Position numbers and translations under genes: made by a program
Notes under the pieces: model-generated
What the model was told of the DNA's origin: nothing
The model's input: only the letters and a program-made list of their open reading frames with translations
The model's database searches: none
In this document: piece by piece, positions 4,699-20,302 of the stretch
Numbering within the stretch: position 1 is the first letter of the stretch
How the letters are laid out: each line of letters starts with the position of its first letter
DNA from: a virus
Strand: one strand, 5' to 3'
DNA: 64,000 nucleotides
IMG/VR virus record: IMGVR_UViG_3300025438_000009
Span: 23,167-87,166 of that record

Positions 4699-5160
4699 AT
4701 GGGATACACACACAATTGGAGAAGAGACGAAAGTCTGATGTTTCCAGAGGACTCTCGCGAGTTCTACGCGGAGTTCACTCGCTATGCGGTGCAGATAATC
4801 CAAACCGCAAAGCAACAGGGTATCGAACTTGCTGACTCTAGTGGCGAGCACTTGGGTGCCTGGCGAGTGGACGGGGATTCGGTGCGACTCAACGGGTACG
4901 GCGAGGACTCTTACGAGAGTTTTGTTTGGGAGAAAGTCTGCCCTGAACCGCAGGACTCCAAGGGGTTCTACGGTTTTTGTAAGACCGCTCGCAAGCCTTA
5001 CGATGTTGTCGTGACCGCCTTGCTCCTTGCGGCACGGGAAGCATACGGGGACGCTGTACGGATTTCTTCCGATGGTTCGCCTTACGAGTGGGAGGACGGG
5101 GTGAAACTCTTCCAGCAGGCGACTGGACTGGTGTCAAGCCCCCTACTCGAAACCGTCTAG
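4699..5160 (+). CDS. Conserved phage hypothetical protein
   Basis: MGYTHNW start, FCKTARKPYDVVV and SSDG motifs; good RBS. Confidence 0.8.
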   Translation: MGYTHNWRRDESLMFPEDSREFYAEFTRYAVQIIQTAKQQGIELADSSGEHLGAWRVDGDSVRLNGYGEDSYESFVWEKVCPEPQDSKGFYGFCKTARKPYDVVVTALLLAAREAYGDAVRISSDGSPYEWEDGVKLFQQATGLVSSPLLETV

Positions 5161-5183
5161 ATGTAGACAAGCCACAGCGAAAA

Positions 5184-5208
5184 GCCCCCGCGAAAGTGGG
5201 GGTTTTTT
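5184..5208 (+). terminator. Intrinsic terminator
   Basis: CCCCCGC-GAAA-GTGGGGG stem followed by a T run. Confidence 0.85.
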
Positions 5209-5332
5209 GTTGCCCGATTTTTTGTCGGACACCTACGAACGTAAAGAATGTGTACGGGCTCAAAATTTCTGGTTGCTCCGCAACTTTGTATGTGGAAAGT
5301 TTGTGGGCGCTCCGAAGAAATACCTTGCTGGT

Positions 5333-5361
5333 TTGACAATGTCACACGTGGGTACTAAAGT
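5333..5361 (+). promoter_or_regulatory. SigA-type promoter with embedded TGTCAC-N10-TANNNT element
   Basis: TTGACA-N17-TAAAGT; near-identical copies at 5955-5983 and 6336-6364. Confidence 0.8.
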
Positions 5362-5388
5362 AGTAAGTACCACAAGAAAGGATTTACA

Positions 5389-5727
5389 ATGGAAAACAAG
5401 AATCACAGCGCGGAGTTCTATGTTGATGCTCCCTGGCTAGAAGTTATTTGGGGCGAAGGCTCACGATTCCAAGTCTGCCGTAATGGCGAGATGCGGATTA
5501 TCGACAACGTTCGCGAAGCCGTCTACCGCTACACGAGTGACTTGGTCGAGGCAGGCATCACGACTGATGCCGATGTCCAGGCACTCTACGAGAGCGAAGA
5601 CTATGTTGTTTCGTACAATCCCTGGTTCGAGGTCTTCGACGCCGAGGACTCTGGGGGCGATGGAGAAGTATTTCATAACGTCCACGAGGCTATCTCTCGG
5701 GCCCAGAAGTTGTCTGAGGAGAAATAA
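5389..5727 (+). CDS. Hypothetical protein
   Basis: 112-aa ORF with ACCACAAGAAAGGA leader. Confidence 0.8.
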   Translation: MENKNHSAEFYVDAPWLEVIWGEGSRFQVCRNGEMRIIDNVREAVYRYTSDLVEAGITTDADVQALYESEDYVVSYNPWFEVFDAEDSGGDGEVFHNVHEAISRAQKLSEEK

Positions 5728-5729
5728 TA

Positions 5730-6002
5730 ATGAGTGATAATGACCAGTTGATACGACACCTAGGAGTCTGGCAAGGACTCGAACTGGAGTATTCTTGGGG
5801 ACACTACGCGGTCTACTGCGGTGGCGCGGAAGACGCCACGCTAGTCGAATACTTTGGTGGAGACGACTACGGGGTTATCAAGCGCTTCGCGGGTGAGACT
5901 GCTATCCATGATGCTATCCGCGAGTGTGACGACCAATACAGCGCGTCTCTCGATTTGACAATGTTACACGTGGGCATTATGCTAAGAGTATCAACTCAAT
6001 AA
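5730..6002 (+). CDS. Hypothetical protein
   Basis: Translationally coupled ORF whose 3' end runs through the 5955-5983 promoter. Confidence 0.65.
   Translation: MSDNDQLIRHLGVWQGLELEYSWGHYAVYCGGAEDATLVEYFGGDDYGVIKRFAGETAIHDAIRECDDQYSASLDLTMLHVGIMLRVSTQ
5955..5983 (+). promoter_or_regulatory. SigA-type promoter, repeat copy
   Basis: TTGACA-ATGTTACACGTGGGCAT-TATGCT. Confidence 0.75.
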
Positions 6003-6095
6003 CCACAACGAGATGAGGGGTTATCACCCGAGTCGGACTCTCGCAAGAGAGCGAGGACTGAACAGAGAGAAGGGGAGTCGCAGACTCCCCTTTTT
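5990..6095 (+). ncRNA. Candidate small RNA of about 100 nt
   Basis: Lies between a promoter and a terminator; no RBS-led ORF; internal hairpin CTCTC-GCAA-GAGAG. Confidence 0.4.
6072..6095 (+). terminator. Intrinsic terminator
   Basis: GGGGAGTC-GCA-GACTCCCC-TTTTT. Confidence 0.9.
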
Positions 6096-6197
6096 GTTTG
6101 TGCCGTGAGCCTTGCACGAACGTAAAGAATGTGTACGGATTTGACACGGAAAGGTTTTTTTGGTACATTGTCAATGTATTTACAACCAAGGAGAAAA

Positions 6198-6311
6198 ATG
6201 ACGAAGCAAAAGAAAATGACAATGGCAGAAGGGTTCACCCTCATCACGGGGCTCTCTGCGGTATTTGTTGTGTTCTACCTAATCGCGCAGCTCATAGGGC
6301 GCGGTTACTAA
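6198..6311 (+). CDS. 37-aa single-pass membrane peptide
   Basis: AAGGAG RBS; hydrophobic stretch FTLITGLSAVFVVFYLIA; TTGACA promoter near 6141. Confidence 0.65.
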   Translation: MTKQKKMTMAEGFTLITGLSAVFVVFYLIAQLIGRGY

Positions 6312-6335
6312 TTTTGCGACACGCCGTAGCAAAGT

Positions 6336-6364
6336 TTGACAATGTCACACGTGGGCACTAGGCT
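6336..6364 (+). promoter_or_regulatory. SigA-type promoter with TGTCAC-N10-TAGGCT
   Basis: TTGACA-N17-TAGGCT. Confidence 0.75.
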
Positions 6365-6393
6365 GGGAGTATCCCAGAGAGAAGGAGGACGAA

Positions 6394-6675
6394 ATGGAAA
6401 AGACAGTAAACGCCCAGACAGCCGAAGCGATTGCCGGACTGGCTCAAGTACGCGCCGATATCAAGCGCCTACAGGAGCAAGAGTCCACTCTCCGCGACAC
6501 CGTCATCGAGGGTATGGGGGACGCACAGATTGCGGTCTTCCGAAACCAAGCGATTGCTCGCTTGACCCAAGTCACTCGCACCACGATTGACTCCAAGAAA
6601 CTTCAGGAGCACTATCCCGAAGCGTTCGCAGACACGAAGCGCGAGAGCACTTCTCCTAGGCTGACCTTAGTCTAG
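6394..6675 (+). CDS. 93-aa coiled-coil protein, paralog of 9060-9341
   Basis: 68/93 identical to the second copy by hand count; C-terminal IDSKKLQEHYPEAF motif. Confidence 0.85.
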   Translation: MEKTVNAQTAEAIAGLAQVRADIKRLQEQESTLRDTVIEGMGDAQIAVFRNQAIARLTQVTRTTIDSKKLQEHYPEAFADTKRESTSPRLTLV

Positions 6676-6705
6676 GGGGAGACTCTCTCCAAGGAAGGAA
6701 ACACA

Positions 6706-6924
6706 ATGTCACTTTATGAAATAACCGGATATATCCAAATCCCCGTCTCCGCTACGGTGGAAGCGGACTCCCCCGAAAAAGCCCACGAGATTGGTAAAGA
6801 CCTTATCAACGATGGGATTGGTATCCAGGGAGACCAGTACTTGCTAGAAGAATACAGCGTATGGAACATTGACCTACCCGATGAGCCAGTAGAGACTCTC
6901 TTGACCCACATAGGACACGCATAA
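6706..6924 (+). CDS. Hypothetical protein
   Basis: AAGGAAGGA RBS; VEADSPEKA motif typical of small phage proteins. Confidence 0.75.
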   Translation: MSLYEITGYIQIPVSATVEADSPEKAHEIGKDLINDGIGIQGDQYLLEEYSVWNIDLPDEPVETLLTHIGHA

Positions 6925-6969
6925 ACAAATACAAAGATAGCCCCCGCAAGAGGGAAGAAAGAGGACAAG

Positions 6970-7107
6970 ATGAAAATCACCGCCACCTACCCGACTTGGC
7001 GCAAGCCAGCACCAGAGACCTACATCGTAGACGCCGAAGAGGCAGATTATTGGGTCGAGCAACTAATTGCTAGTGGTGCGCTTTTTGTGACAACTAAAGA
7101 AGATTAG
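6970..7107 (+). CDS. 45-aa hypothetical peptide
   Basis: GAGGA RBS; MKITATYPTWRK...KED; ends just before a terminator. Confidence 0.6.
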   Translation: MKITATYPTWRKPAPETYIVDAEEADYWVEQLIASGALFVTTKED

Positions 7108-7121
7108 AAACGAAAAAATAT

Positions 7122-7153
7122 CCCCCGCCAAAAGCGCGGGGGTTATTTTTTTT
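7122..7153 (+). terminator. Intrinsic terminator
   Basis: CCCCCGC...GCGGGGG stem followed by a T run. Confidence 0.8.
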
Positions 7154-7261
7154 GCGCGGGAGCCCCCGCGAACGTAAAGAATGTGTACGCGGGTTTTGGT
7201 GCTTGACTTTTTATGTGCGGGTTGGTACTTTACTAATATATCCACACAACAAGGAGGAAAA

Positions 7262-7417
7262 ATGTATTACTTTATTACTGTAGTTGCTAGGGGTACGCGG
7301 GAAATAATTGCTACCTATATCGCATCACTCGAAGATGAAGCGCACCGAATCGTCCAGTCTATTGGAACTGGCGAAGGCTATATGGTATTTGTAACTCAGG
7401 GCGACCCACTGTCGTAA
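7262..7417 (+). CDS. 51-aa hypothetical protein
   Basis: AAGGAGG RBS before the ATG at 7262. Confidence 0.7.
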   Translation: MYYFITVVARGTREIIATYIASLEDEAHRIVQSIGTGEGYMVFVTQGDPLS

Positions 7418-7479
7418 CTTGCGCTGAGTGCCGTTGAGCACTATACTGAAACTGTAAGACTAAATAGAAGGAGACACAA

Positions 7480-7755
7480 ATGGGAAACTTACAAGCAGCA
7501 TCACTGGCAGAGTTGGCTATTGACGACAACGCCCTGCACAACGCCCTGGCTATCCACTTGCGGAGTAATCACTATCCCCCCGTGAACTATGCCTTTATCC
7601 CCGTAGCGAAGCAAGCAATCGCTTTGGCAATCGAGGAAGACTATGACGCCGAGTTGGAATACCCTAATGGTCTGGTGCGGAGTGTCGCACACACTATCGA
7701 GGGACTTCACTTAGACGCTTTTGTGGAGGCTCGGGTAGGTGACTACGATGAGTAA
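7480..7755 (+). CDS. Hypothetical protein
   Basis: HLRSNHYPPV motif; AAGGAG RBS; promoter TTGCGC-N17-TATACT upstream. Confidence 0.8.
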   Translation: MGNLQAASLAELAIDDNALHNALAIHLRSNHYPPVNYAFIPVAKQAIALAIEEDYDAELEYPNGLVRSVAHTIEGLHLDAFVEARVGDYDE

Positions 7756-7930
7756 TCAAGTTGCCGTTACTGAACTACCCCAGTGCGACTTTTGCGCGGG
7801 GGAGGCAGAGTATGACGCCAAGACAACTTTAGGACCCTGGGCTAATATGTGTGAAGGCGACTTCCAAACCTACGGAGTTGGACAACTAGGGACTGGCTTT
7901 GGGCAGAAACTGGTCGTCCTCACCTACTAA
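7748..7930 (+). CDS. Conserved small phage Zn-binding protein
   Basis: CDFC...YDAKT..GPWANMC...GTGFGQ pattern. Confidence 0.75.
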   Translation: MSNQVAVTELPQCDFCAGEAEYDAKTTLGPWANMCEGDFQTYGVGQLGTGFGQKLVVLTY

Positions 7931-7944
7931 GACAATAAGCAAGA

Positions 7945-7970
7945 GGGAGTCAGGAAACTGGCTCCCTTTT
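7945..7970 (+). terminator. Intrinsic terminator
   Basis: GGGAGTCAG-GAAA-CTGGCTCCC-TTTT. Confidence 0.85.
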
Positions 7971-8009
7971 GTGTTTGACAATGGCAAACGCCGATGATAT
8001 AGTGTAACT

Positions 8010-8177
8010 ATGAATAAGAAACCTAAGCACAGAGGAATAGCGAACCCAGCCTATGCGCTCGCTATGTCTGAGTTGCGCCGCTCGAACGCCTCGGGGACTC
8101 ACGCCGACAAGCGTACTCGCAGGGTACGCACTCGCAGTGCCTCGAAGCGCAGGTCGCTGGAGGACTATCGTGGCTAA
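8010..8177 (+). CDS. 55-aa very basic, probably leaderless peptide
   Basis: TTGACA(7975)-N17-TATAGT(7998-8003) with ATG 6 nt later; ELRRSNASGTH...RVRTRSASKRRSL. Confidence 0.7.
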   Translation: MNKKPKHRGIANPAYALAMSELRRSNASGTHADKRTRRVRTRSASKRRSLEDYRG

Positions 8178-8304
8178 GTTGCTGGGACTGAGTGTAGTGC
8201 TCGGAGTGTTGGTGGCGTTGTCCCCCGACTCCCCTGGGACCCTCGCAGGGCTGATAGTCGCGAGTGCGGTTGCTGCAGTGTCAGTAGTCGCCGATAGAAT
8301 GTAA
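8170..8304 (+). CDS. 44-aa membrane peptide
   Basis: GGAGG RBS, GTG start, two hydrophobic segments. Confidence 0.55.
   Translation: MAKLLGLSVVLGVLVALSPDSPGTLAGLIVASAVAAVSVVADRM
8279..8300 (+). promoter_or_regulatory. PafBC/RecA-NDp-like promoter
   Basis: TGTCAG-TAGTCGCCGA-TAGAAT. Confidence 0.7.
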
Positions 8305-8337
8305 GTGTAAGACAAACCACAACTAAGGAGAAGCAAA

Positions 8338-8484
8338 ATGAACAGAGATGATTTTTTCAGGAAAGTTCTGGAAATATTCCCCGAAGCAATTATTGACGAG
8401 GAATACGCCACTGGTGAGTTGATGATATCAACTGGCTGGAAGTTTGACACCATCGACACCATCGTCCCCCTGGTCGAGAAGTAG
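8338..8484 (+). CDS. 48-aa hypothetical peptide
   Basis: ACCACAACTAAGGAG leader; MNRDDFFRKVLEIFPEA. Confidence 0.7.
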   Translation: MNRDDFFRKVLEIFPEAIIDEEYATGELMISTGWKFDTIDTIVPLVEK

Positions 8485-8495
8485 GGGTAAAGACA

Positions 8496-8612
8496 ATGAG
8501 TACCACACCCTGCAACATATGCGTAATCGCAGTTGATACCGATATCCACGCCGAAGAACTAGGAATGTGTGTGGACTGCTCGAACGAGTATTTCACGCAC
8601 GCAGATGAATAA
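8496..8612 (+). CDS. 38-aa micro zinc-finger peptide
   Basis: CNIC...CVDC; followed by a terminator at about 8627-8658. Confidence 0.6.
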   Translation: MSTTPCNICVIAVDTDIHAEELGMCVDCSNEYFTHADE

Positions 8613-8709
8613 GAAATAACAAAGATGGCCCCTGCATAAATGTGGGGGCTGTTTTTTTGTGGGAGTAGTGGGGGCGAACGTAAAGAAAGTGTACGCAGGA
8701 GATGCGCGG

Positions 8710-8731
8710 TGTCAGTGGTTGCTGATACACT
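8710..8731 (+). promoter_or_regulatory. PafBC/RecA-NDp-like promoter
   Basis: TGTCAG-TGGTTGCTGA-TACACT with no canonical TTGACA. Confidence 0.75.
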
Positions 8732-8770
8732 AAAAATGTACCCAAAAACACTCTAAAAGAAGGAAAACCT

Positions 8771-8977
8771 ATGATACACAACATTATTTCCCCCCGAGGT
8801 TCGTATTTTGCTGGTGATGGGTCATACGGAAGCGCTAAAAACGTCGTGATTGTCGATACCGACAGTTGGACTGAAGAAGACTGGGCGCGTATCGAGGACG
8901 CCTCCGATGAAGAACGTCCCGACATCGCCGGCGAGCTGGGAACATACTATTGGTCTGCATCAAGAAAAAATATCTAA
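8771..8977 (+). CDS. Hypothetical acidic protein
   Basis: AAGGA RBS downstream of the promoter. Confidence 0.7.
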   Translation: MIHNIISPRGSYFAGDGSYGSAKNVVIVDTDSWTEEDWARIEDASDEERPDIAGELGTYYWSASRKNI

Positions 8978-9059
8978 TATTTAGTGTTTCAACTTGACAA
9001 GATGACATTGAGGCACTATTCTTGAAGTATCAAGAACAACCACTAGGGAAGGAAACCCA

Positions 9060-9341
9060 ATGGAAAAGACAGTAAACACCGCGACTGCCGAGGCAGTGTC
9101 GCAGTTGGTCCAGGTTCGTAAAGCCATCAAGAAAATGCAGGAGCAGGAAAGCGCATTGCGCGACACTGTGATTGCGGGACTGGGTGACCACAGTGTCGCA
9201 GTGTTCCGAGGACAGCAGATTGCTCGCTTGACTCAGGTCACCCGCGTGACTGTGGACAGCAAGAAGTTGCAGGAGTCTTTTCCCGAGGCTTTTGAGGCCA
9301 CCAAGCGTGAAAGCATCTCACCCCGACTGACTTTAGTCTAG
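9060..9341 (+). CDS. 93-aa coiled-coil protein, paralog of 6394-6675
   Basis: Same length, start and end (MEKTVN...SPRLTLV); own TTGACA-N17-TATTCT promoter. Confidence 0.85.
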   Translation: MEKTVNTATAEAVSQLVQVRKAIKKMQEQESALRDTVIAGLGDHSVAVFRGQQIARLTQVTRVTVDSKKLQESFPEAFEATKRESISPRLTLV

Positions 9342-9443
9342 GGGAAAGCACAAGCCCTAGTTGCTACGGCAACTGGGGCTTTTGCTATTTGCATTAGAAG
9401 AGACATTCTGATACACTCAAGGAACCGTACAGAAAGAAAAAAT

Positions 9444-9761
9444 ATGGACAACTATGCAATATCTTTTGCGAGTGAACTGGAGTTACGCTTTGGCGGAAAA
9501 AATGCAAACTACATCTTTGAAGTTATTCCTGGACGGAAGTTTGACAAGATTGTGCGAAGGCTAACTGGCAGTGAGCAGACTAGCGTCCACGCATTCGTTG
9601 AGCGTTCTACGGGAGCACTCATCAAAGCTGCGAGCTGGTCACAACCACAGAAGGATACGCAGGGAAGACTTGCTATTCGCTACAACCTGGCAGACGAGCA
9701 AGAGTACAAGCGAGCAGTAGAGAGTGCCGACGAGTTTGGAAGTTACCTTTACGCACGCTAG
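9444..9761 (+). CDS. Conserved phage hypothetical protein
   Basis: GRKFDKI...SVHAFV...LIKAASWSQP pattern. Confidence 0.8.
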   Translation: MDNYAISFASELELRFGGKNANYIFEVIPGRKFDKIVRRLTGSEQTSVHAFVERSTGALIKAASWSQPQKDTQGRLAIRYNLADEQEYKRAVESADEFGSYLYAR

Positions 9762-9824
9762 TTTGACATTCGTAAGAGTGTCGCCTACACTAAAGCAATA
9801 CCTAATCACAATGAAAGGAACACA

Positions 9825-10166
9825 ATGGTAGAAATGAAATGGGAAGAGCCACCTCAGCAGTTGCTGGGTCGTGGTCATACTGACTGGCGGGCAGTCGCCG
9901 ATGCTTTGAAGAGCAACCCCAACGAGTGGGCAATAGTCGCAGAAAATGTTAGCGCGTCAACTGGGACACACATTCGTTATGGTCGCCTCAAGGCATTCGA
10001 GCCATCTGGCGCATTCGAAGCACGAGTAAGTGGCGCACGAGGAGACGCAAGCGGTAGGGCTAGTAAAGTCTACGCACGTTATGTGGGTGCCGGTAGTGTT
10101 ACTACCACTCCCGTGACCGAAGTAGTAGAGGAAGGGACTCCGTTCTCTTCCTGGGGTTCTGAGTAA
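9825..10166 (+). CDS. Hypothetical protein
   Basis: TTGACA-N17-TACACT promoter and GAAAGGA RBS; WEEPP...LKSNPNEWA...VYARYVG. Confidence 0.8.
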   Translation: MVEMKWEEPPQQLLGRGHTDWRAVADALKSNPNEWAIVAENVSASTGTHIRYGRLKAFEPSGAFEARVSGARGDASGRASKVYARYVGAGSVTTTPVTEVVEEGTPFSSWGSE

Positions 10167-10281
10167 ACAGAATCCAACAAGGCCCCCGAGCAATCGGGGG
10201 TTTTTGTTTTGTACGGCGTGTCGTTTTGCATTCTCTGTGTGTTTTTGGTACTGTGTAAGTACCACAAGGAAAGGAATCGAA

Positions 10282-10392
10282 ATGGAAAATCCATTCGACA
10301 ACCCAGACATCATCAACACCGAAGCTATCGAGGATATGGACGACCAGACTGTAAAGACAATCTGGAATATCCTGACTAAAGCAGGATACTAA
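10282..10392 (+). CDS. 36-aa acidic peptide
   Basis: ACCACAAGGAAAGGA leader; flanked by terminators. Confidence 0.65.
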   Translation: MENPFDNPDIINTEAIEDMDDQTVKTIWNILTKAGY

Positions 10393-10562
10393 ATCACAAG
10401 AAGGACCCTCCGAAAGGGGGGTTCTTTTTTTGTCGTCCTGTCGCGAGGGCCGGGTGCGAACGTAAAGAATGTGTACATGTTGAAAGTTGGCTGATGTGCG
10501 AGTGTCAGTGGTTGCTGATAAAGAAAAACCCCCTCACTCTCGAGGGGGGGTTTCCTTTTGGG

Positions 10563-10652
10563 CTATCGGCCTCTACGAACCTGAACGAAGTAGACAATCC
10601 ATAAGATTATTGCTAAGGGAATTGCGACCTCTGCGGGGATGTTGTCTTGCAT
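10563..10652 (-). CDS. 29-aa membrane peptide on the opposite strand
   Basis: MQDNIPAEVAIPLAIILWIVYFVQVRRGR; GAAAGGA RBS; TTGCTT-N17-TATACT promoter on the minus strand; hairpin at about 10525-10555. Confidence 0.7.
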   Translation of the reverse strand: MQDNIPAEVAIPLAIILWIVYFVQVRRGR

Positions 10653-10827
10653 TTTGTTTCCTTTCGTCGTCCTTATATCTCAAGTATAAGATGAAACTTT
10701 GTAAAAAGCAAGTCCTGTAACTAATTTTTGACGTGCTCTAGCATATTTCTCTCCGCAGTGCAAGTAGTTTCCGTCACACGGAAAACGTCCCCTCAAACTT
10801 TCTACATTGGCGTGTCATAGTTGCGAG

Positions 10828-10849
10828 TGTCAGTGGTCTCTGGTACAGT
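10828..10849 (+). promoter_or_regulatory. PafBC/RecA-NDp-like promoter
   Basis: TGTCAG-TGGTCTCTGG-TACAGT, with TTGCGA at the -35 position. Confidence 0.75.
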
Positions 10850-10875
10850 GTGATTACCACAAGAAAGGATTTGAT

Positions 10876-11403
10876 ATGACTACATCATTCGCCACCGAAC
10901 GCCAGATGGCTTTTATTCGCAACTTGGTTGCCGAGCGTGACGTTGCCCCTGTTGAGTTTGCGGGCATGACTGTACGCGAAGCCTCTGCCACGATTGAGCA
11001 GTTACTGGCTACGCCCAAGAAAGCCTCTGTAGTCAGGTTCTCTGACGTGCTCACCTCTTTGCCCAAGTCGAAGTACGCTCTGCCGTATCAACTGGTAGCG
11101 CCAGTCTTTACGGACAGTAGTTTCGACAACGACTACCTCTTCGTCGAGGTGCGGGAGCACCGGGGAACGACTTACATGAGGAAGTTGCAAGGTTCATTGG
11201 GCGACTTTGTTCGCACACGGTTCTCCCGTGATGAAGAGCAGTCGCTCTACAACATCCTGAGTTCTAACCCTGTTGAGTACATCACGAAGTTTGGTGAAGT
11301 ATTTTCCTGCTGTGGCAAGTGCTCCGCACCACTCACCACAGAGCGAAGCAGGGAATTGCTCTTGGGACCGGACTGCGCCCGAATGTTGGGGGTGAGGTAC
11401 TAA
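10876..11403 (+). CDS. DUF6011-like Zn-finger protein
   Basis: C-terminal CGKCSAPLT..SR..LGPDC; N-terminal ATERQMAFI; RBS places the start at 10876. Confidence 0.75.
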   Translation: MTTSFATERQMAFIRNLVAERDVAPVEFAGMTVREASATIEQLLATPKKASVVRFSDVLTSLPKSKYALPYQLVAPVFTDSSFDNDYLFVEVREHRGTTYMRKLQGSLGDFVRTRFSRDEEQSLYNILSSNPVEYITKFGEVFSCCGKCSAPLTTERSRELLLGPDCARMLGVRY

Positions 11404-11572
11404 TAGTCTAGATAATTGCAGACCAGCTCACGGGAAATGCAATGTTTCTAAAGGAACTAATCTTTATTAGCCGACTATTGACCTCAACTTGACAGTTGGG
11501 GCGTAGTTTGGTATGCTTATTATGTCAGAAAGTGTATTTACACAACCACAACTTTGAAAAGGAGGTGCACCT

Positions 11573-12532
11573 ATGACAAAAAACCTTCAAATTGCGTATA
11601 GTGATGACTATCTCAACTGGGACCTCGGTTCTGGAGACGGCACCCACATTACGAAGCCTATTCGGGCGAAGCTTGCTACGGAGTTTCTCGTTGATTCATT
11701 GGGAGACAAAGTAGACATTATCGAGCCCGCCATTAGGGAGGGAGACCGCGAGAAGCTAGAAGCTACTCACGACCCTGGATATGTTTCTCGGGTGCTCGAC
11801 TCCTATCAAGCCCACGACTGGTCTGGTGCCAACAAGAGCAATGCCGAGACAGCATTCAAGATGTTTGCGGGCACTGTTCGATTGACTGAGAACATTATCT
11901 CCGGTGAGACTAATGTTGGATTCAATCCTCAAGGCGCTAAGCACCACGCTAAGTATTCACACAGCGAAGGGTTCTGTGTGTTCAACGACATGGTGTGGGC
12001 TGCTAGGGAGTTCAAGAAGGCTGGTATGAAGCCTTTGTACCTGGACTGGGATGTTCACGCTGGTAACGGCGTACAGAACCTTTTGGAACTGGAGGACATT
12101 CCGACTCTGAGTATTCACGCCTCGGGTATCTACCCATTCAACGACAACAACCACAGTATGAAGAATAGCAAGATTGCTACGACTCATACCTGGCACAGCA
12201 CGACTAGCCATTACTACAACTGGAATATCGAACTGCCCGGATACGACTACGATTTGTACCGTGCTCTCGATGGAGTGGAAGAAGTTATTGACCACTATCA
12301 GCCAGATGTAGTCCTACTCGCCGCTGGTGCGGATGGACATGAGAATGACATCTGGGGAATGAAGTACAGCATTGACGGATTCACCTGGGCGTCTCACCGA
12401 CTGTCGAAGATGGTAGAGAAGTATGCCGAAGGTAGGATTCTCATTGGAGGCGCTGGAGGCTATCAACCCTACGACTGGACACCACTGGTGTGGAAAGAAG
12501 TAGTCGAGACAATGTACACCAACGTGCGCTAG
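11573..12532 (+). CDS. Histone deacetylase family (AcuC/HdaH-like) Zn-dependent deacetylase
   Basis: GAKHHA, GFCVFND, LDWDVHAGNG, SIH, AGADGH and GGY motifs are all present. Confidence 0.92.
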   Translation: MTKNLQIAYSDDYLNWDLGSGDGTHITKPIRAKLATEFLVDSLGDKVDIIEPAIREGDREKLEATHDPGYVSRVLDSYQAHDWSGANKSNAETAFKMFAGTVRLTENIISGETNVGFNPQGAKHHAKYSHSEGFCVFNDMVWAAREFKKAGMKPLYLDWDVHAGNGVQNLLELEDIPTLSIHASGIYPFNDNNHSMKNSKIATTHTWHSTTSHYYNWNIELPGYDYDLYRALDGVEEVIDHYQPDVVLLAAGADGHENDIWGMKYSIDGFTWASHRLSKMVEKYAEGRILIGGAGGYQPYDWTPLVWKEVVETMYTNVR

Positions 12533-12541
12533 GATAACGAC

Positions 12542-12691
12542 ATGGAAATTATTATTCTTGTTTCGTTATCTGTTGCCGTAGGTATTGTTACGGGCATGGG
12601 GTTCTGCACATGGAGAGCCTATGCCCGTGACGCCCGCCTGAGACAAATGCCTCTGTTAGGCGTTGTGCTCCCCCCTAAGAAAGATAAGTAG
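12542..12691 (+). CDS. 49-aa membrane peptide
   Basis: MEIIILVSLSVAVGIVTGMGF hydrophobic N-terminus, basic tail. Confidence 0.55.
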   Translation: MEIIILVSLSVAVGIVTGMGFCTWRAYARDARLRQMPLLGVVLPPKKDK

Positions 12692-12855
12692 TGCGTAGGG
12701 TCTGGGTATACCTAAGAGACCTGGTGTGGACTGCTGTGGCGTCCGTGGCGCTTGCGGTAGTCTCCCTGGTCGCCCTCGCCCTCGGGAACCCCGAAGGTGC
12801 TGGAGTATTTGCTCTGTTGGCGGTAGGGTCTGCAATCCTATCAACACGTTCATAA
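12691..12855 (+). CDS. 54-aa two-helix membrane peptide
   Basis: Coupled GTG start; two hydrophobic segments. Confidence 0.5.
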   Translation: MRRVWVYLRDLVWTAVASVALAVVSLVALALGNPEGAGVFALLAVGSAILSTRS

Positions 12856-12874
12856 TTTGCTATAGTTGGTGATT

Positions 12875-13312
12875 ATGGAAGATAAAAAGCCACACTCCAA
12901 TAAGCCAACTCCTAAAGACTTTGCTCGCAAGCTTGATGAAGTTGTACCTACTCCACCCAAGAAAGAAGCGGAGCCTGCTCCTGTTTCTGCTCCCCCAAAG
13001 TCTTTGGCCCCAAGAACGGCTTACGCTGTTGTTAGTGGGAAGAACCAAGACGACGTGCACTTGTCTAAGGCTGTGTATAAGAACACTGCCCGCAAGCGCT
13101 CACTTACCGTCCACCACATTCAGCGCAGGCTGACTGAGTGGGGGCACTATGACGCCTTTCTTGACAAGGATGGATTCTACGGTGACAGCACCAAAAAGTC
13201 CGTCATTGAGTTTCAAGATAGGATGGGCATTATTGCCACAGGGTTGATGGACATTGAGACTATGACCAAACTCTTCGAAAACGATACAAACGTAGTCGTT
13301 CATTTGTCCTAA
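12875..13312 (+). CDS. Peptidoglycan-binding (PG_binding_1-like) domain protein
   Basis: VHHIQRRL..WG...DGFYGDSTKKSVIEFQ...GI..TG pattern; Pro/Lys-rich N-terminus; no catalytic domain. Confidence 0.8.
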   Translation: MEDKKPHSNKPTPKDFARKLDEVVPTPPKKEAEPAPVSAPPKSLAPRTAYAVVSGKNQDDVHLSKAVYKNTARKRSLTVHHIQRRLTEWGHYDAFLDKDGFYGDSTKKSVIEFQDRMGIIATGLMDIETMTKLFENDTNVVVHLS

Positions 13313-13429
13313 CAACCAAAACCTAAAACGTCAGGCCCCTCGCTTACGCGGGGGGTCTTTCGTATTGTGTGGGTATACACATTCTTTACGTTCGCGAGTA
13401 TTATGGTTTAGTAATTTTTGTTTGTCAAT

Positions 13430-13458
13430 TTGACTTTGTCAGTGGTGAGCACTATACT
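13430..13458 (+). promoter_or_regulatory. Dual SigA and PafBC-like promoter
   Basis: TTGACT-T-TGTCAG-TGGTGAGCAC-TATACT. Confidence 0.8.
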
Positions 13459-13494
13459 AGTTATATAACAACTACACAGAGAGAGGAAGTGGAC

Positions 13495-13701
13495 ATGAGC
13501 GGATACACCGTAACCACACCCACGGGGCGCTACGCCCAGACCAGCGCGGGGGAAGTACTAGTGTTCGACACCGAGCGTAATGCTGAGACCTACATTTGGG
13601 ATAGGTACTACGATTTTCGGGATTCCTTCACCATTGCCCCGAGCACCAAGGACAGTGGTCGCCCAGTGAGAGCCACAGACCTAATGCGCTTTAGCGCCTA
13701 G
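13495..13701 (+). CDS. Hypothetical protein
   Basis: GAGGA RBS before the ATG at 13495; followed by a terminator. Confidence 0.7.
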   Translation: MSGYTVTTPTGRYAQTSAGEVLVFDTERNAETYIWDRYYDFRDSFTIAPSTKDSGRPVRATDLMRFSA

Positions 13702-13946
13702 CACCAAACGGAGTAGCCCCCCTACGCACTAGATGCTAGGGGGGTTATTTGTTTTTTGACACGATTTGACAGTGCTAGTTTTGATAACTATACTTGGAGT
13801 ATCAAGTCAATTAGTTAGGGGTGATGCACTACGGGTGCTCATGGGGCGCCTTGTTCAGTGCTATCGCTCAGATACGTCTGTAGCATCGGGGGGCCTCGGC
13901 CCCCCACACTAAAAGACAATGACAGACAAGACAGAAAGAAGGAAAG

Positions 13947-14288
13947 ATGAGAACAGCAGTGAAAGTAACCACAGAAGGACAAGTGGCAGTGCTCGACTTA
14001 GACAGTGTGGACAGTGAACTATCAACACTTCAGAGTGCCGTAGGTGGGTGGATTGAAGCAGTAGACGTAGCTGGAGAAATGAGTATCTACCTAAATGAAG
14101 AAGGAAAGATGATAGGACTCCCTATCAACTATGTAGCTACTTGGTACTTCGACCAGACATGGGGAGCAGGGAAAGACATTATCGTAGGTGATGTTGTATT
14201 CACTGGACTACCCGATGGAGAAGGTAAGACCATGGGACTTACCGTCGAGCAGCTGACCGGCGTTATGGACCGCGTAGGCGCTAGCTAG
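13947..14288 (+). CDS. DUF3846-like protein
   Basis: LQSAVGGWIEAV, NEEGK, LPIN..AT and IVGDVV motifs. Confidence 0.85.
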   Translation: MRTAVKVTTEGQVAVLDLDSVDSELSTLQSAVGGWIEAVDVAGEMSIYLNEEGKMIGLPINYVATWYFDQTWGAGKDIIVGDVVFTGLPDGEGKTMGLTVEQLTGVMDRVGAS

Positions 14289-14353
14289 CCAACACCCCAA
14301 GTAAAGACCCCCACACACCCCGTGGGGGTTTTTGCTATGATATCCTTGACCCT

Positions 14354-14914
14354 ATGAACCTACCTAATGACGTACAAAATGACCTAGCTCGCCACGCCGG
14401 GAACACTTTGACCTTGCCGTACCTTGCCCGTGTCCTACGGGACAGTGGGTGGACGTTGAGTGCTATTGCTGAACCTTTAGGCCTAACCCGCGAGCGCGTG
14501 CGACAAATTATCAACAGTGCAACCGATAAAGACTACGAAAGTCTTGCGGACTTCGCGAACAGCATTGGTTTTGAAATCCCTGCGCCCCCGCCCAAGCCAG
14601 TGCTGGAAGAACGTAAAAAAAGTGTACGCCCGACAGTAGGCCAAGAAAACATTGAACGGATGTTGGAACTGCAACCTTTTGCTAGGCAAGTGCGCTCGAA
14701 CAGCCCGCTTTACCGTGCGGAGGGTGAGGAATACACTCGTCTCATTGCTTATGAGCACCTAGAACGTGGTGTATCACTCTTTAGCTTGAGTAAAGAGCTG
14801 GGAGTGACTCACGGGGCACTTCGCTTCCGGTTAGTGCGATACGGGTATAAAGAAGCGACTTCAGAACATAAAGTCTACAGACCTATTAGCCAGGAGAACA
14901 GAGTACATGGGTAA
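14354..14914 (+). CDS. Double helix-turn-helix DNA-binding protein, probably leaderless
   Basis: GWTLSAIAEPLGLTRERVRQI and GVSLFSLSKELGVTHGAL; TATCCT -10 lies 7 nt before the ATG; overlaps the terminase start. Confidence 0.8.
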   Translation: MNLPNDVQNDLARHAGNTLTLPYLARVLRDSGWTLSAIAEPLGLTRERVRQIINSATDKDYESLADFANSIGFEIPAPPPKPVLEERKKSVRPTVGQENIERMLELQPFARQVRSNSPLYRAEGEEYTRLIAYEHLERGVSLFSLSKELGVTHGALRFRLVRYGYKEATSEHKVYRPISQENRVHG

Positions 14915-16322
14915 ATCTCTCGCTCAGATAGTTGCAGAACTTCCCGATGAGGAGAGACTGCAAGCGATGGAAGGACTAGACCCTGACAACCTTTTATGGG
15001 ACTGGAGATTCTGGGGCAGACCAGAACAGATTCCCCCTGCTGATGACTCGTGGAACGTGGGACTGTACTTAGCTGGACGTGGAGCTGGGAAGACCAGGGC
15101 AGCAGCGGAGTGGATTAGGGACAGAGCTAAGATTTCAGACCGGGGACACTTGAGATTCCTGTTGGTCGCTCGTACTGCAGCTGACGTGCGAGACGTGCTT
15201 GTGGAGGGTGACTCAGGAGTACTCAACGTTAGCCCGCCCTCAGAGCGACCACTCTATGAACCATCCAAGCGTAGGCTCACGTGGCCCAATGGGAACACTG
15301 CTGTACTCTCGACCGCTGATGAACCTGACTCACTTCGTGGTGTGCAAGCACATTACTCGTGGGCTGATGAGTTGGCAGCGTGGAGGCAGACCCCAGATGC
15401 AGCAGGCATGACCTCATGGGACAACTTGAGGGTGGCAACTCGTCTAGGTATGAACCCTCAGATACTGGCGACCACCACACCCAAGCGCGTGCCTGTGCTC
15501 TATGCATTACTAGATGAAGCCAAGCAGGGAAAGAAGATATGGATATCTCGGGGCTCAACCATGGACAACGCTGGCAACCTATCAGAGGCATACTTGAGTG
15601 CTATCACGGGAGTGTATGAAGGTACTCGGCTTGCAGCACAAGAGCTCTATGGTGAGATGCTTGACGCTGTTGAGGGAGCACTGTGGACGGAGGAGCTAAT
15701 TAGTGCTGGGAGGCAGAGTGTCATGCCTAGTGGACTTCCCCTACGCTGTATTGGTGTAGACCCCTCGGTAGCGGAGAGCCCTCGTGATGAGTGCGGGATA
15801 GTCGTAGTGGCTAGTACCGCCGAACGTGACCTGTACAAGAGACAATCGTGGGTACTGGAGGATGCTAGTGTCCTCGGGTCGCCTACAGTGTGGGCCCAGA
15901 GAGTAGTGGACATGGCTCGCAAGTGGGGTTGTCCTGTAGTGGCAGAGGTGAACCAAGGTGGAGCTTTGGTAAGTAATGCTATCCACACCATCGACCCGAA
16001 CATCACGGTGTTGGAGGTGCACTCCAAGTACGGCAAAGCCCTGCGGGCAGAGCCCATCACCCTAGCGTATGAACAGTCACGGGTGCATCACCTCGGATAC
16101 TTCGCGGAGCTCGAGAGCCAGATGACTTCGTGGGTACCAGGTGAAAGTAAGTCTCCCGACAGAGTTGATGCACTTGTACATGCACTTACGGCTTTGCTCA
16201 TCAAGCCCCCTGCTGGATTCAGTGGTGGGAAGATTACGGCTAAGTCCCATGCGGGTAGGCGTATATCTGATGGTAATAGTGTCGCCGGACGTGGCGGGCG
16301 TGGAGTGTTCAGAGTACGGTAG
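14907..16322 (+). CDS. terL: Terminase large subunit
   Basis: AGRGAGKT Walker A, WADE Walker B, TTTP coupling motif, nuclease motifs GVDPS and SPDRVDAL. Confidence 0.95.
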   Translation: MGKSLAQIVAELPDEERLQAMEGLDPDNLLWDWRFWGRPEQIPPADDSWNVGLYLAGRGAGKTRAAAEWIRDRAKISDRGHLRFLLVARTAADVRDVLVEGDSGVLNVSPPSERPLYEPSKRRLTWPNGNTAVLSTADEPDSLRGVQAHYSWADELAAWRQTPDAAGMTSWDNLRVATRLGMNPQILATTTPKRVPVLYALLDEAKQGKKIWISRGSTMDNAGNLSEAYLSAITGVYEGTRLAAQELYGEMLDAVEGALWTEELISAGRQSVMPSGLPLRCIGVDPSVAESPRDECGIVVVASTAERDLYKRQSWVLEDASVLGSPTVWAQRVVDMARKWGCPVVAEVNQGGALVSNAIHTIDPNITVLEVHSKYGKALRAEPITLAYEQSRVHHLGYFAELESQMTSWVPGESKSPDRVDALVHALTALLIKPPAGFSGGKITAKSHAGRRISDGNSVAGRGGRGVFRVR

Positions 16323-16563
16323 AACTTATGCGGTAATACGGTAATGGCATTGCTGGAGCTTGAGTTGTTTGTTATGGAATCGTTATTGGCCAACCGCTAA
16401 CTTTGTAGATTAGTTTGTGTATCAAGTTATGGCGCACTGCGTGTCGCCGGTGGAATTTTCTTTGACACTGTGTACATGAGGTTGAGCTTATGACCCCCCT
16501 GTTTGGGTGGGTGTGTTGTTGTTGAGTGTGCAATTGTTTGTACAGAGTTGCTGGCCACCCCTG

Positions 16564-16585
16564 TGTCAGTGGTCATCATTACTAT
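16564..16585 (+). promoter_or_regulatory. PafBC/RecA-NDp-like promoter in a non-coding stretch
   Basis: TGTCAG-TGGTCATCAT-TACTAT. Confidence 0.6.
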
Positions 16586-17084
16586 TGATAAGGGGGAAGC
16601 CTAGACCCCCACGCTGGCAGAGTAAAGAACCCCCTTGCCTAGGGGGTGCATGCCTGTAGGTGGTAGGGGGTAGCTTTGCCTATGTCTGTCAACAAGGTTG
16701 AAGAGGGTGGGTTGCACCAGAGTTACATGTTTGCTAGTACAAATCTTTTGTTGTTGTGTCTAGTACAAGAGGGGGGGGGTACACATTCTTTACTTGTATA
16801 TATTTTTTCTTGGCCCCCCCTATTGAGGGGGGTGTACCTCTCTAAAACACATCATCTGCCCCAGAAAAAAGTGCGCAGCCCCTAAAATAAACAGAGGAGA
16901 AAGTATTCTGGAATTGACTTGACATCTGTGTAGCTAGGTGGTGTTGCAGACTTTTGCCGTGCCATGCGGGGGTGGGGTGAAAACAGGAAACCAGGCGATT
17001 TGCAGCTCAGCGCAGAGGCTCCCCACTCACCGACCAAATGCAGTTTAACTAAGGGTACCGAAACGTACACTATGTACGTAAGAA

Positions 17085-17432
17085 CTAAGCCTTTTTTCTC
17101 GGAGCCCTCTTCTTAGGAGCAGGCTTTGCCTTAGCTGTAACAGGCACCGCCACAACCTCTTCCTCGGGTTCTCCGGCAATCTTGGCATCCAGGATGGCAC
17201 TTCCGCCATCGGCAAGGAAGTGTGAGAAAGCAATCTGCGCCTCTCGGGGGACGTCCATCACCTTCTCGAAGTCGACAATGTGTAGGACGTCGCCTACGGA
17301 GTCTAGAATCTCGTAGTCGTTTCCGACGAGCATTCCGACTAGTGAAACTTCTGCCAGTGTAGACTCACTGGTGCAGAATACGTTTAGCATGTAGTTGCGG
17401 TATGCCACGCTGATTTTGAATTCTTTGGACAT
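17085..17432 (-). CDS. Hypothetical protein with histone-like basic tail
   Basis: AAGGAGAG RBS; C-terminal KAKPAPKKRAPRKKA. Confidence 0.8.
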   Translation of the reverse strand: MSKEFKISVAYRNYMLNVFCTSESTLAEVSLVGMLVGNDYEILDSVGDVLHIVDFEKVMDVPREAQIAFSHFLADGGSAILDAKIAGEPEEEVVAVPVTAKAKPAPKKRAPRKKA

Positions 17433-17532
17433 GTCTCTCCTTAAGATTTACAACCCAAACTATATCAGAAAAATATAACTTTATTGTTCTATTTCCGCCC
17501 TTAAGTACCAAATCTTCCTGTAGAATCTTCTT

Positions 17533-18015
17533 ATGAGAAGGTCCGCCAGAAGTCAGCCACTTCCCCTCAAAGAGCAGAAGCATCTGCTCGCCCTCGTGGA
17601 AACCCCGCCTTTGCTCAAGGCTCGTTGCTACTCTCTCTATATGGCTGGGTGGACTCTTTCGGCTATTGGTGACGCTCTTGGGAAAGCTCGTTCGACAGTC
17701 CGTTCGTGGATTGTGTCTGGCCCGTATCCTTTCGATACCACTATTCCTAAGCCTGCTGATAAAAGCTACGTCCGTCGACGCCCCATCTCTCCGGGCATTT
17801 CTCCTACCGACAAAAGTCGCCTTGCTAAGCTTGCGCCTATTGCCCGACGCTATCGGGCTAGACTCGCTCCCACGCATAGCGCTACACTTGCTAATAACGA
17901 ACTTACGGATTTAACTCGCGCTCTCCACGCCACAGGCGTATCCATTCAACAACTTGCTGATGCCACGGGTGTCACATATCGTGCCATGTATAGAAGGGTC
18001 AAAAATGTCCGTTAA
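17533..18015 (+). CDS. Double helix-turn-helix protein, paralog of 14354-14914
   Basis: GWTLSAIGDALGKARSTVRSWI and GVSIQQLADATGVTYRAM; TAGAAT -10 lies 6 nt before the ATG. Confidence 0.8.
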   Translation: MRRSARSQPLPLKEQKHLLALVETPPLLKARCYSLYMAGWTLSAIGDALGKARSTVRSWIVSGPYPFDTTIPKPADKSYVRRRPISPGISPTDKSRLAKLAPIARRYRARLAPTHSATLANNELTDLTRALHATGVSIQQLADATGVTYRAMYRRVKNVR

Positions 18016-18682: not shown

Positions 18683-20302
18683 GTGGGTGTTTTTCGTAAA
18701 GAGTCCGTTGCAGTACCTGCTCCATACTCCACCCCTCGCGCTTTAACGGCAGCAGCTGCCCAGGTTCGTCTTAATGATAGGGCTGAGGCTGAGCAGTTTA
18801 AGTCCCGGCGTGCGTCTTCTGTTAGTCAGTGGCAACAGGAGGCGTGGGAGTACTACGACGCTATCGGCGAGATTAAGTACGCTTTTAGTCTTGTTGGTTC
18901 GGTTGTTTCTCGCGTCCGCCTTTACGCTGCAGTAATTGAAAACCCAGCTAACGCTCCCGTTTCAGTTACGGACTCGGACACTATTGACCCTTCGCTTGCT
19001 GAGGCAGCACAACGTGCTTTGGCGAGACTTGATTCTGCATATGGCGGACTGGCTGGACTCCTTCGGGACGCAGCCCTCAACATTCTTGTTGCTGGTGAGT
19101 GCTATCTGATTCAGACTCCCGAGCGCATCGGCTCCAGCCTCCCTGAGACGTGGGACATTCGTTCTGTTGATGAGCTTAAGATTGACGGTCGCGGTCAGTA
19201 CATTATTTCTACACGTAGGGACTTGAGCGCGGCTAACGTTGTTCCCGTTCCTAAGAACTCTTTTGTTGGACGTATCTGGCGTTCACACCCCCGCTATTCT
19301 GATGAGCCAGATTCTAGCTTGAAGGGTATATTAGACCTTTGTTCCGAGCTGCTTTTGTTGAACCGTACTTTCCGCGCTACTGCCCGTTCGCGTCTGAACG
19401 CTGGTGCCCTCTACCTTCCCGACGGTCTTTCCGTTTCCGCTGGTCCAGAGAACGACTACCAGTTCGAAGATGAGATTGACATCACGAACCCGACTCCTGA
19501 GGAGGAGGAAGACGAGTTTGAAGAGCAACTGATTGATGCGATGACGACTCCTATCTCGGACGAGTCCTCCGCTAGTGCTGTTGTTCCTCTCATCATTCGC
19601 GGACCTGCTGAGCTTGGGGATGCTATCAAGCAGTTCAAGTTTGAGCGTTCTTTTGACCCAGCGCTAGCCGAGCGTTCTGACCGTGTTCTCGAACGCATCC
19701 TCCAGGGTCTTGATGTTCCTAAGGACATCGTTACGGGTCTTGCGAATGTTCGCTACTCGAACGCTATTCAGATTGACGAGAGCCTTTACAAAGCCCACAT
19801 TGAGCCTCTGATGCTTCTTATTGCAGACGCTCTCACGGTTGTGTATTTTCGCCCCTACTTGCGTTCGCTCGGGCATGAGGATGCGGACATTGACCGCCTT
19901 GTTATTTGGTATGACCCTTCCGCTGTTAGTACGCGCAACGACCGTGCGATGGATGCGGACTCGGGCTTTGACAAGATGGCGGTTAGCTACGGTGCGTGGA
20001 GACACGCACACGGATTCTCGGAGGCAGACGCTCCTAGCCCAACAGAACTGGCTATGAGGTTAATGATTCAAAAGGGCATGATTACGCCCGAACTGACGGA
20101 AGCACTTCTTGCAACTTTTGCCCCCGAGGCAATGACGGCTGTGCGTGATTCTGTTCAGTCTAAGAGTGACACCCCTGTTCCGACCGAGGTTGAGCAGATT
20201 CTTGAGCAACAGGGACCACCTGCAGAAGGGGGAGACGAATCCGCACCTCCTGCTCCTCCAGGAGAAGAACCACCTATCCCGCTAGCCGAGCCAGAAGCAT
20301 AA
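18683..20302 (+). CDS. Portal protein
   Basis: WQQEAWEYYDAIGEIKYA, GRIWRSHPR and GLDVPKDIVTG resemble cluster-B-like actinophage portals; size and position fit. Confidence 0.85.
   Translation: MGVFRKESVAVPAPYSTPRALTAAAAQVRLNDRAEAEQFKSRRASSVSQWQQEAWEYYDAIGEIKYAFSLVGSVVSRVRLYAAVIENPANAPVSVTDSDTIDPSLAEAAQRALARLDSAYGGLAGLLRDAALNILVAGECYLIQTPERIGSSLPETWDIRSVDELKIDGRGQYIISTRRDLSAANVVPVPKNSFVGRIWRSHPRYSDEPDSSLKGILDLCSELLLLNRTFRATARSRLNAGALYLPDGLSVSAGPENDYQFEDEIDITNPTPEEEEDEFEEQLIDAMTTPISDESSASAVVPLIIRGPAELGDAIKQFKFERSFDPALAERSDRVLERILQGLDVPKDIVTGLANVRYSNAIQIDESLYKAHIEPLMLLIADALTVVYFRPYLRSLGHEDADIDRLVIWYDPSAVSTRNDRAMDADSGFDKMAVSYGAWRHAHGFSEADAPSPTELAMRLMIQKGMITPELTEALLATFAPEAMTAVRDSVQSKSDTPVPTEVEQILEQQGPPAEGGDESAPPAPPGEEPPIPLAEPEA

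Follow-up and report, generated by a model that had tools for sequence, protein, structure and literature searches.

Candidate PafBC-class promoters in an uncultured actinobacterial phage and their counterparts in unrelated lake actinophages

Introduction

The DNA described here, hereafter the window, is a stretch of 64,000 nucleotides (nt) which corresponds to bases 23167-87166 of the 87-kb IMG/VR record IMGVR_UViG_3300025438_000009, whose completeness is estimated at 51%. It comes from an uncultured tailed phage which probably infects actinobacteria. Upstream of the large terminase gene (14907-16322) lies a series of short genes which have individual promoters and, in many cases, individual terminators. 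The present report deals with a promoter element found repeatedly in this region, TGTCAG-N10-TANNNT, and with its likeness to the promoters of the host DNA-damage regulator PafBC. A search for sequencing datasets with the same DNA listed 24 DNA datasets, from salt-lake and freshwater metagenomes, and no RNA dataset. The phage record contains a gene for WhiB, a marker for actinobacteria and their phages. The large terminase (TerL) shares 75% identity with its counterpart in 'Actinomycetia phage DSL-LC01', a metagenome-assembled genome, and about 64% with the TerLs of Microbacterium phages; excerpts of PMC10611076 give genomes of about 190 kb for Microbacterium phages with a related TerL. Megablast of window positions 5000-17000 against phages gave no match, nor did a search of GenBank phages with the 91-amino acid (aa) protein encoded at 7480-7755.

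PafBC is the main DNA-damage regulator of actinobacteria, mycobacteria included, and adapts the housekeeping sigma factor to promoters which lack a -35 hexamer. Its in vivo consensus has been reported as tGTCgg(N10)tA(N3)T, with the box at -23 to -28 (the '-26 element') and no -35, and the GTC triplet is almost invariant across actinobacterial PafBC boxes (excerpts of PMC8635444). According to the same excerpts, PafBC slots between the DNA and sigma region 4, a mode of action termed 'sigma adaptation', and excerpts of PMC11804915 describe its activation by single-stranded DNA (ssDNA) on the WYL domains. A first-pass annotation of the window had given the mycobacterial promoter as tTGTCRgtg-N8-TAnnnT, read by PafBC as a -26 element; the -26 element is borne out by PMC8635444 as excerpted, while the exact string was not met in the cited literature.

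TGTCAG promoters of the window

Five exact matches to TGTCAG-N10-TANNNT are found in the window, all on the + strand, at 8279, 8710, 10828, 13437 and 16564, precisely where the first-pass annotation had placed them. In 100 shuffles the mean was 0.46 and the largest number 2, so that none reached five. A sixth copy, at 10503, had been noted as lacking the last T of the -10, and its sequence, TGTCAGTGGTTGCTGATAAAGA, agrees. The 10-mer TGTCAGTGGT is exact at 8710, 10503, 10828, 13437 and 16564, whereas a single letter differs at 8279. The 10-nt gap is strict: five sites have N10, and each of the other spacings from N6 to N14 is represented by 0-3. None of the six sites lies within a gene, and all are oriented along the direction of the genes. 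A ribosome-binding site (RBS) and an ATG follow 26-39 nt past the -10 at 8279, 8710, 10828 and 13437, and the genes behind these four promoters encode products of 48, 68, 175 (DUF6011) and 68 aa, respectively. Coordinates are given in Table 1.

Beyond the box and the -10, the six copies have no common sequence, with the exception of 8710 and 10503, which represent a local duplication because their flanking sequence is shared; 10503 is the decayed copy. This duplication is what speaks for chance or functionless repeated DNA as the origin of the whole set. Such an origin is extremely improbable given the shuffles, the unrelated flanks of the other copies, in which box and -10 alone are invariant, the co-directional and intergenic placement with an RBS and an ATG after four of six sites, and the same architecture in 22 other phage loci (see below).

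Table 1. Promoters and associated open reading frames (ORFs) in the window. Bits refer to the weight matrix built from host recA promoters.
Position	Strand	Feature	Remarks
5333..5361	+	Class A promoter, TTGACA-N17-TAAAGT, conserved spacer ATGTCACACGTGGGTAC	Not PafBC-type; <10 bits
5955..5983	+	Class A promoter, spacer TGTTAC, GTC triplet broken	<10 bits
6336..6364	+	Class A promoter	<10 bits
8279..8300	+	Putative PafBC-type promoter, weaker copy (TGTCAGTAGT, -10 TAGAAT)	No usable -35; 14.9 bits, under host range
8338..8484	+	48-aa ORF behind 8279 promoter, RBS AAGGAG	No Pfam or PHROG family
8710..8731	+	Putative PafBC-type promoter (TGTCAGTGGT, TGn-extended -10 TACACT)	No -35; 20.7 bits, within host range
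8771..8977	+	68-aa ORF behind 8710 promoter	DSL-LC01 homologue under different promoter type
10503..10524	+	Decayed copy of 8710 promoter	-10 without last T; 14.9 bits; terminator hairpin 10529-10548 immediately downstream
10821..10849	+	Putative PafBC-type promoter (box 10828, -10 TACAGT)	Partial -35 TTGCGA at 17 nt; 20.7 bits
10876..11403	+	175-aa DUF6011 protein behind 10828 promoter	Protein atlas: DUF6011 phage clusters only
13430..13458	+	Putative hybrid promoter TTGACT-N17-TATACT, TGTCAGTGGT box (13437) within spacer	20.7 bits
13495..13701	+	68-aa ORF behind 13437 promoter	
16564..16585	+	Putative orphan PafBC-type promoter past terminase gene	20.7 bits; faces about 750 nt without convincing ORF

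Likeness to host PafBC promoters

The six phage sites all carry a GTC-containing box, TGTCAG, and five of them the exact 10-nt gap to TAnnnT. For comparison with host promoters, 30 recA loci, all from one actinobacterial order, were assembled. TGTCRG-N10-TAnnnT lies 90-180 nt before the RecA domain in 27 of these 30 loci, with only two matches elsewhere in 201,644 nt, and the spacing is again strict (28 sites at N10 versus at most one at any other spacing). One host recA promoter (L271) carries the identical 10-mer, TGTCAGTGGT.

A weight matrix was built from the 27 host recA sites only, its columns being the box plus the T, A and T of the -10; the inner -10 letters, whose inclusion penalized the phage -10s, were left out. 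With this matrix the sites at 8710, 10828, 13437 and 16564 each score 20.7 bits, inside the range of the host sites (17.2-22.6 bits), and those at 8279 and 10503 score 14.9 bits, below it. The four matches at the 20.7-bit level compare with 0.04 in 200 reshuffles, and at these four sites the likeness to PafBC sites proposed by the first-pass annotation withstood the matrix scan that it had suggested.

The likeness extends to the fine structure of the sites. Whole-genome counts exceeded those of a reversed control pattern in the genomes of a Streptomyces (77 versus 8), a Mycobacterium (44 versus 21) and another actinobacterium (45 versus 20). In host sites, TGTCRG is mostly followed directly by TGG or ACC; in the Streptomyces genome, ACC is present in 12 of the 77 sites versus none in the control, and several of the 12 serve as promoters for leaderless HNH, MazG or DinB-like genes. 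Similarly, TGTCRG is followed by TGG in 147/239 phage sites and by ACC in 29/239, the background for ACC being 1.1%.

Two further observations were made on actinobacterial sites. In three actinobacterial genomes (L132, L184 and L377), a TGTCAG site with a consensus -10 sits 7 nt before the ATG of genes for DUF222-HNH proteins, a domain composition confirmed by Pfam for L377 and read by eye for L132 and L184; because the -10 is only 7 nt ahead of the ATG, these transcripts are probably leaderless. A scan of 185,579 genomes for TGTCAGTGG-N7-TAYAAT gave mostly chance matches across phyla, with actinobacteria named in 7 of the 80 matches listed, and serves as a source of examples, not as evidence of enrichment.

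Recurrence in unrelated actinophages

A motif scan of IMG/VR recovered at least 116 stretches, and 22 of those listed hold 4-19 co-directional copies in DNA of 34-45% G+C. Across these 22 phage loci, 241 sites have the N10 spacing versus at most 22 at any other spacing. WhiB is encoded in 9 of the 22 motif-rich records listed and in all three complete ones. The WhiB-carrying lake phages, which are unrelated to the window phage, contain clusters of 8-19 copies. In the three complete motif-rich lake phages (107-116 kb), the sites are confined to one block of 10-15 kb. The motif-rich lake phages are related to each other and, with portal proteins that are 55% identical, to Streptomyces phages whose genomes measure 121-134 kb.

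The window phage and the three complete lake phages have no structural gene in common. What they share is limited to a thioredoxin, WhiB, a 91-aa ORF and weak matches to two giant proteins. Judged by this gene content, the window phage is a second, unrelated lineage carrying these promoters, so that the architecture, with its match to host sites, recurs in unrelated actinophages. The shared thioredoxin (WCGPC) is encoded before the window, at record positions 19730-20116, and is the sole protein which the window phage has in common with all three complete lake phages (blastp, 1e-5).

An example from a culturable host was sought among five named phages, four Streptomyces phages and Microbacterium phage Zooman, and none was obtained. 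Relatives of the protein encoded at 10876-11403 were sought in IMG/VR, and none was confirmed.

Sigma-A-type promoters and the activator-free alternative

The TGTCAG sites are interleaved with promoters of the housekeeping type: between 506 and 13766, 14 TTGAC-N16-18-TAnnnT sites are present on the + strand. Among these are three promoters, termed class A here, at 5333, 5955 and 6336, each with TTGACA, a 17-nt spacer and TAnnnT as expected for the housekeeping sigma -35/-10 class. They contain the TGTCAC/TGTTAC-N10-TANNNT variants which the first-pass annotation had counted with the PafBC-type sites. The positions of these variants (5340, 5962 and 6343) were correct, and each lies inside a perfect TTGACA-N17-TAnnnT promoter. 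Their PafBC-likeness did not hold, since they score below 10 bits with the host matrix and the GTC triplet is broken at 5962. The three promoters share a 17-nt spacer, ATGTCACACGTGGGCAC, which includes a CACGTG palindrome and has the invariant form ATGT(C/T)ACACGTGGG; judging from this conservation, the spacer may be an operator embedded in the promoter.

The TGTCAG sites themselves differ in their -35 regions. No -35 was found at 8710 and 16564, and at 8279 only a TTGCTG at 19 nt. The box at 13437 is nested in TTGACT-N17-TATACT, and 10828 has TTGCGA, a 4/6 match, at 17 nt. This distribution matches the earlier description, in which several sites lay within TTGACN-N17 promoters and 8279, 8710 and 16564 lacked a good -35. 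A TGn-extended -10 is present at 8710, 10503 and 10828 and missing at 8279, 13437 and 16564.

These features bear on the alternative that the sites are ordinary housekeeping-sigma promoters, for which an extended -10 or a partial -35 suffices without any activator and in which the box has been kept as a repressor operator, a spacer or a shape element. This alternative keeps some weight because some copies do have a -35 or an extended -10. It also accords with the TG found at the extended -10 position in 121/239 sites of other phages, with the frequent location of the box within TTGACA/TTGCGA-N17-18 promoters in two terminase relatives, L301 and L338, and with the class A promoters (n=3), in which this phage does put conserved elements into promoter spacers. 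We nevertheless consider it distinctly unlikely, as half of the window sites lack TGn and a -35 signal is absent from 8710, from 16564 and, in the sequence logo, from most sites of the low-GC phages. Besides, the box is asymmetric, unlike a typical operator, and this alternative gives no reason why it should be exactly identical to host activator sites.

Promoter turnover among relatives and the candidate reader

The terminase relatives of the window phage (80 collected, 47 of them with at least 5 kb upstream) differ widely in their promoters. In L296, the closest relative with coverage (90% TerL identity), a hybrid promoter like that at 13437 is present in the opposite orientation relative to TerL. 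The DSL-LC01 homologues of the genes at 8771 and 10876 stand behind a quite different promoter. Since orthologous genes are found under quite different promoter types, the turnover of promoters in this group of phages seems to be rapid.

In DSL-LC01 (L005, OQ999401.1 24063-65421), gATTCTAAAGaTGTTATAATaGAATCa stands before each of about 30 small genes. It consists of an extended -10 between the arms of a 7-bp inverted repeat, GATTCTA/TAGAATC, and by this layout looks like one operator-promoter reused throughout the region. Among the terminase relatives L302-L375, other boxes before the -10 include aACCTGATATAAT, TTCCAGAG-N4-TAnnAT, AAACTAAAGTTGTTATAAT and GGATTGTATAAT.

Such diversity raises the possibility that the TGTCAG box is recognized not by host PafBC but by another factor, be it phage-encoded, virion-carried or another host -26 regulator, in a manner similar to MotA/AsiA of phage T4, the likeness to host sites then being mimicry or convergence. 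The boxes of the relatives (gATTCTAAAGaTGTTATAATaGAATCa in DSL-LC01; TTCCAGAG-N4-TAnnAT, aACCTGATATAAT and others) do look like phage-specific promoter codes, the motif is patchy inside both lineages, and most genes here have no assigned function. This explanation stays alive because the relatives' boxes are diverse and half of the window phage genome is missing from the record. We regard it as rather unlikely on several grounds. The phage sites agree with host sites in their core, in their spacing and in their TGG/ACC fine structure. The search for a WYL protein of the phage itself, suggested by the first-pass annotation, found none in the 87 kb of the roughly 51%-complete record, nor in any of the 22 motif-rich IMG/VR records listed. 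Sigma region 2 (Sigma70_r2) was absent from the window record and the three complete lake phages (0/4), and HTH_11 gave nothing above cut-off there. No candidate DNA-binding protein common to the window phage and the three lake phages was found by blastp at 1e-5. The other described -26 activator, SiwR, has a GGA in a palindrome, not a GTC (excerpts of PMC10693628). As the lineages are unrelated, with no common structural gene or visible regulator, a host factor would be the simpler common reader.

In a low-GC actinobacterial genome (46-48% G+C in the pieces read), two adjacent genes correspond to PafB and PafC, the halves of the solved PafBC structures (PDB 6SJ9 and 7P5X), and WYL genes are present in 20/21 genomes of the same family, mostly as tandem pairs. 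This family is a plausible candidate host family. Box-plus-GG sites number 0-4 in four of its small genomes (1.4-1.9 Mb) and 18, versus 1 in the control, in a 2.4-Mb genome. That these small genomes hold fewer sites than some phages suggests that phage DNA could compete for PafBC.

Neighboring elements and genes

A 19-nt asymmetric element, GAACGTAAAGAA(A/T)GTGTAC, occurs in 10 copies at three or fewer mismatches, compared with 0.04 expected. The copies lie at 262, 4404, 5237, 6118, 7170, 8676, 10458 and 14609 on the + strand and at 13393 and 16797 on the - strand. They are mostly located 10-25 nt past a terminator hairpin and 5-95 nt ahead of the next promoter, which can be of either class, and the element is also found in the closest relatives, L296 and L297. 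At 10503-10548, the copy of the 8710 promoter, together with an upstream 19-nt element, runs straight into a two-way terminator hairpin; this region is the remnant of a duplicated cassette.

In the approximately 750 nt after the terminase gene (16323-17080), no ORF is convincing, while hairpins and runs of C and G abound. Besides the orphan promoter at 16564, this segment includes a near-match at 16655 and one 19-nt element in reverse orientation, and it could be a packaging site, a replication site or a source of small RNA. An Rfam scan of 5000-18000 returned four matches with E values of 0.12-0.85, all well under gathering scores, and no family at 16564. The predicted fold of 16592-16700 is unremarkable (z = -1.8).

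A sigma-like role was weighed for the 186-aa helix-turn-helix (HTH) protein encoded at 14354-14914 and discarded. The protein is more likely a small terminase, because its region-4-like HTH is restricted to the N-terminus and its gene lies directly 5' of the large terminase gene. A 319-aa protein encoded at 11573-12532, behind a sigma-A-type promoter, contains a full histone-deacetylase domain (Pfam E 3.8e-44) and has no PHROG family match.

Discussion

We lean toward reading the sites at 8279, 8710, 10828, 13437 and 16564 as phage promoters of the actinobacterial PafBC (RecA-NDp) class, read by the PafBC of the host; binding by PafBC, the ssDNA trigger and the timing are what we infer from their sequence. 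In the proposed mechanism, host RNA polymerase with the housekeeping sigma factor would bind the -10, and the ssDNA-loaded PafB-PafC heterodimer of the host would take up a position with sigma region 4 on one side and the TGTCAG box on the other ('sigma adaptation'), leading to transcription. The short, mostly single-gene units would then fire upon build-up of ssDNA in the infected cell, for which phage replication, recombination, breakdown of host DNA or prior damage are possible sources. No ssDNA signal would be needed by the TTGACA-N17-TAnnnT promoters interleaved with them, roughly 14 in number, and 13437, with its full -35, and 10828, with its partial one, could work both ways. The first-pass annotation had proposed that the phage plugs early, accessory genes into the host PafBC regulon. 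Sequence and geometry support the link to the regulon, while 'early' and 'accessory' were guesses, the products being small proteins without assigned function.

Several points weigh against this assignment to host PafBC. Within the window, 10503 and 16564 have no visible gene downstream, and some sites may work without an activator, given the -35-like hexamers at 13437 and 10828 and the TGn-extended -10 at 8710, 10503 and 10828. The 27 sites behind the matrix are orthologous promoters of a single order and are thus not independent. Among relatives, DSL-LC01 and Microbacterium phage Zooman have no match at all, and three or more co-directional sites are present in just 2 of the 47 TerL relatives with sufficient upstream sequence (L301 and L338, with 3-5 sites). 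In comparable positions the relatives have repeated boxes of other sequence, which also fits phage-specific readers. The cultured Streptomyces phages Muntaha, StarPlatinum, Jollison and Ankus, which are related to the lake-phage lineage, have 0-1 matches, although the Streptomyces genome is rich in sites. As the record is 51% complete, a WYL protein or another reader may be encoded in the unseen half. Finally, a switch which requires ssDNA would be an odd choice if the genes had to be immediate-early.

The closest known counterparts are the PafBC-dependent (RecA-NDp, recA P1-type) promoters of Mycobacterium and other actinobacteria, which likewise have a TGTC(A/G)G box, located near -28 to -23, and the 10-nt gap, and which usually lack a -35 (excerpts of PMC8635444, PMC11804915 and PMC6789036). 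Some host recA promoters contain the very 10-mer of the phage, and the same TGG and ACC flavors are found. Unlike these host promoters, the phage sites drive small genes without assigned function instead of repair genes; an additional -35 or extended -10 is present in some copies, and two are without a gene.

T4 middle promoters consist of a MotA box at -30 and a -10, and the phage supplies its own activator and remodels sigma region 4. The window promoters resemble them in having an upstream box in place of a -35 and in probably forming a second temporal class beside ordinary promoters. They differ in that the box here equals the site of a host activator; no WYL, Sigma70_r2 or HTH_11 protein was found, in searches which were not aimed at MotA or AsiA. 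Temperate phages are also known to carry LexA boxes, LexA being a repressor which acts through a palindromic operator and is cleaved through RecA. As with phage genes under LexA, the genes considered here would be wired to the DNA-damage sensing of the host. PafBC, in contrast, is an activator, is independent of RecA and uses an asymmetric -26 box. The SiwR promoter of M. smegmatis, where a WYL activator acts at the -26 region on a 19-bp imperfect palindrome with a conserved GGA (excerpts of PMC10693628), is similar in its -26 element beside a -10 and differs from the phage sites, which have GTC and are not palindromic. Excerpts of PMC8635444 also name the 'sigma appropriation' at AsiA/MotA middle promoters of T4 beside the mechanism of PafBC. 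No published account of PafBC-type promoters in phages was found in literature searches combining PafBC, RecA-NDp or sigma adaptation with phages, the results of which were mostly listings.

A broader scenario is doubtful though worth stating: unrelated lake and salt-lake actinophage lineages may have independently adopted the PafBC -26 element as a promoter class, in which the ssDNA alarm of the host would time the expression of small genes in a second wave, and the phage sites (5-19, compared with 0-4 in the small actinobacterial genomes sampled) could soak up PafBC and thereby blunt the damage and defense response of the host.

The hypothesis of host PafBC as the reader is easily testable with published reagents, namely M. 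smegmatis RNA polymerase, PafBC and pafBC deletion strains. If it is correct, phage infection would be a natural trigger and user of the PafBC pathway, a host nucleic-acid sensor rather than phage factors could set the timing of actinophage gene expression, and phage DNA could draw PafBC away from the host regulon. Promoters of the PafBC type would not be confined to one phage family and could be mixed, promoter by promoter, with sigma-A-type ones, hybrids included.

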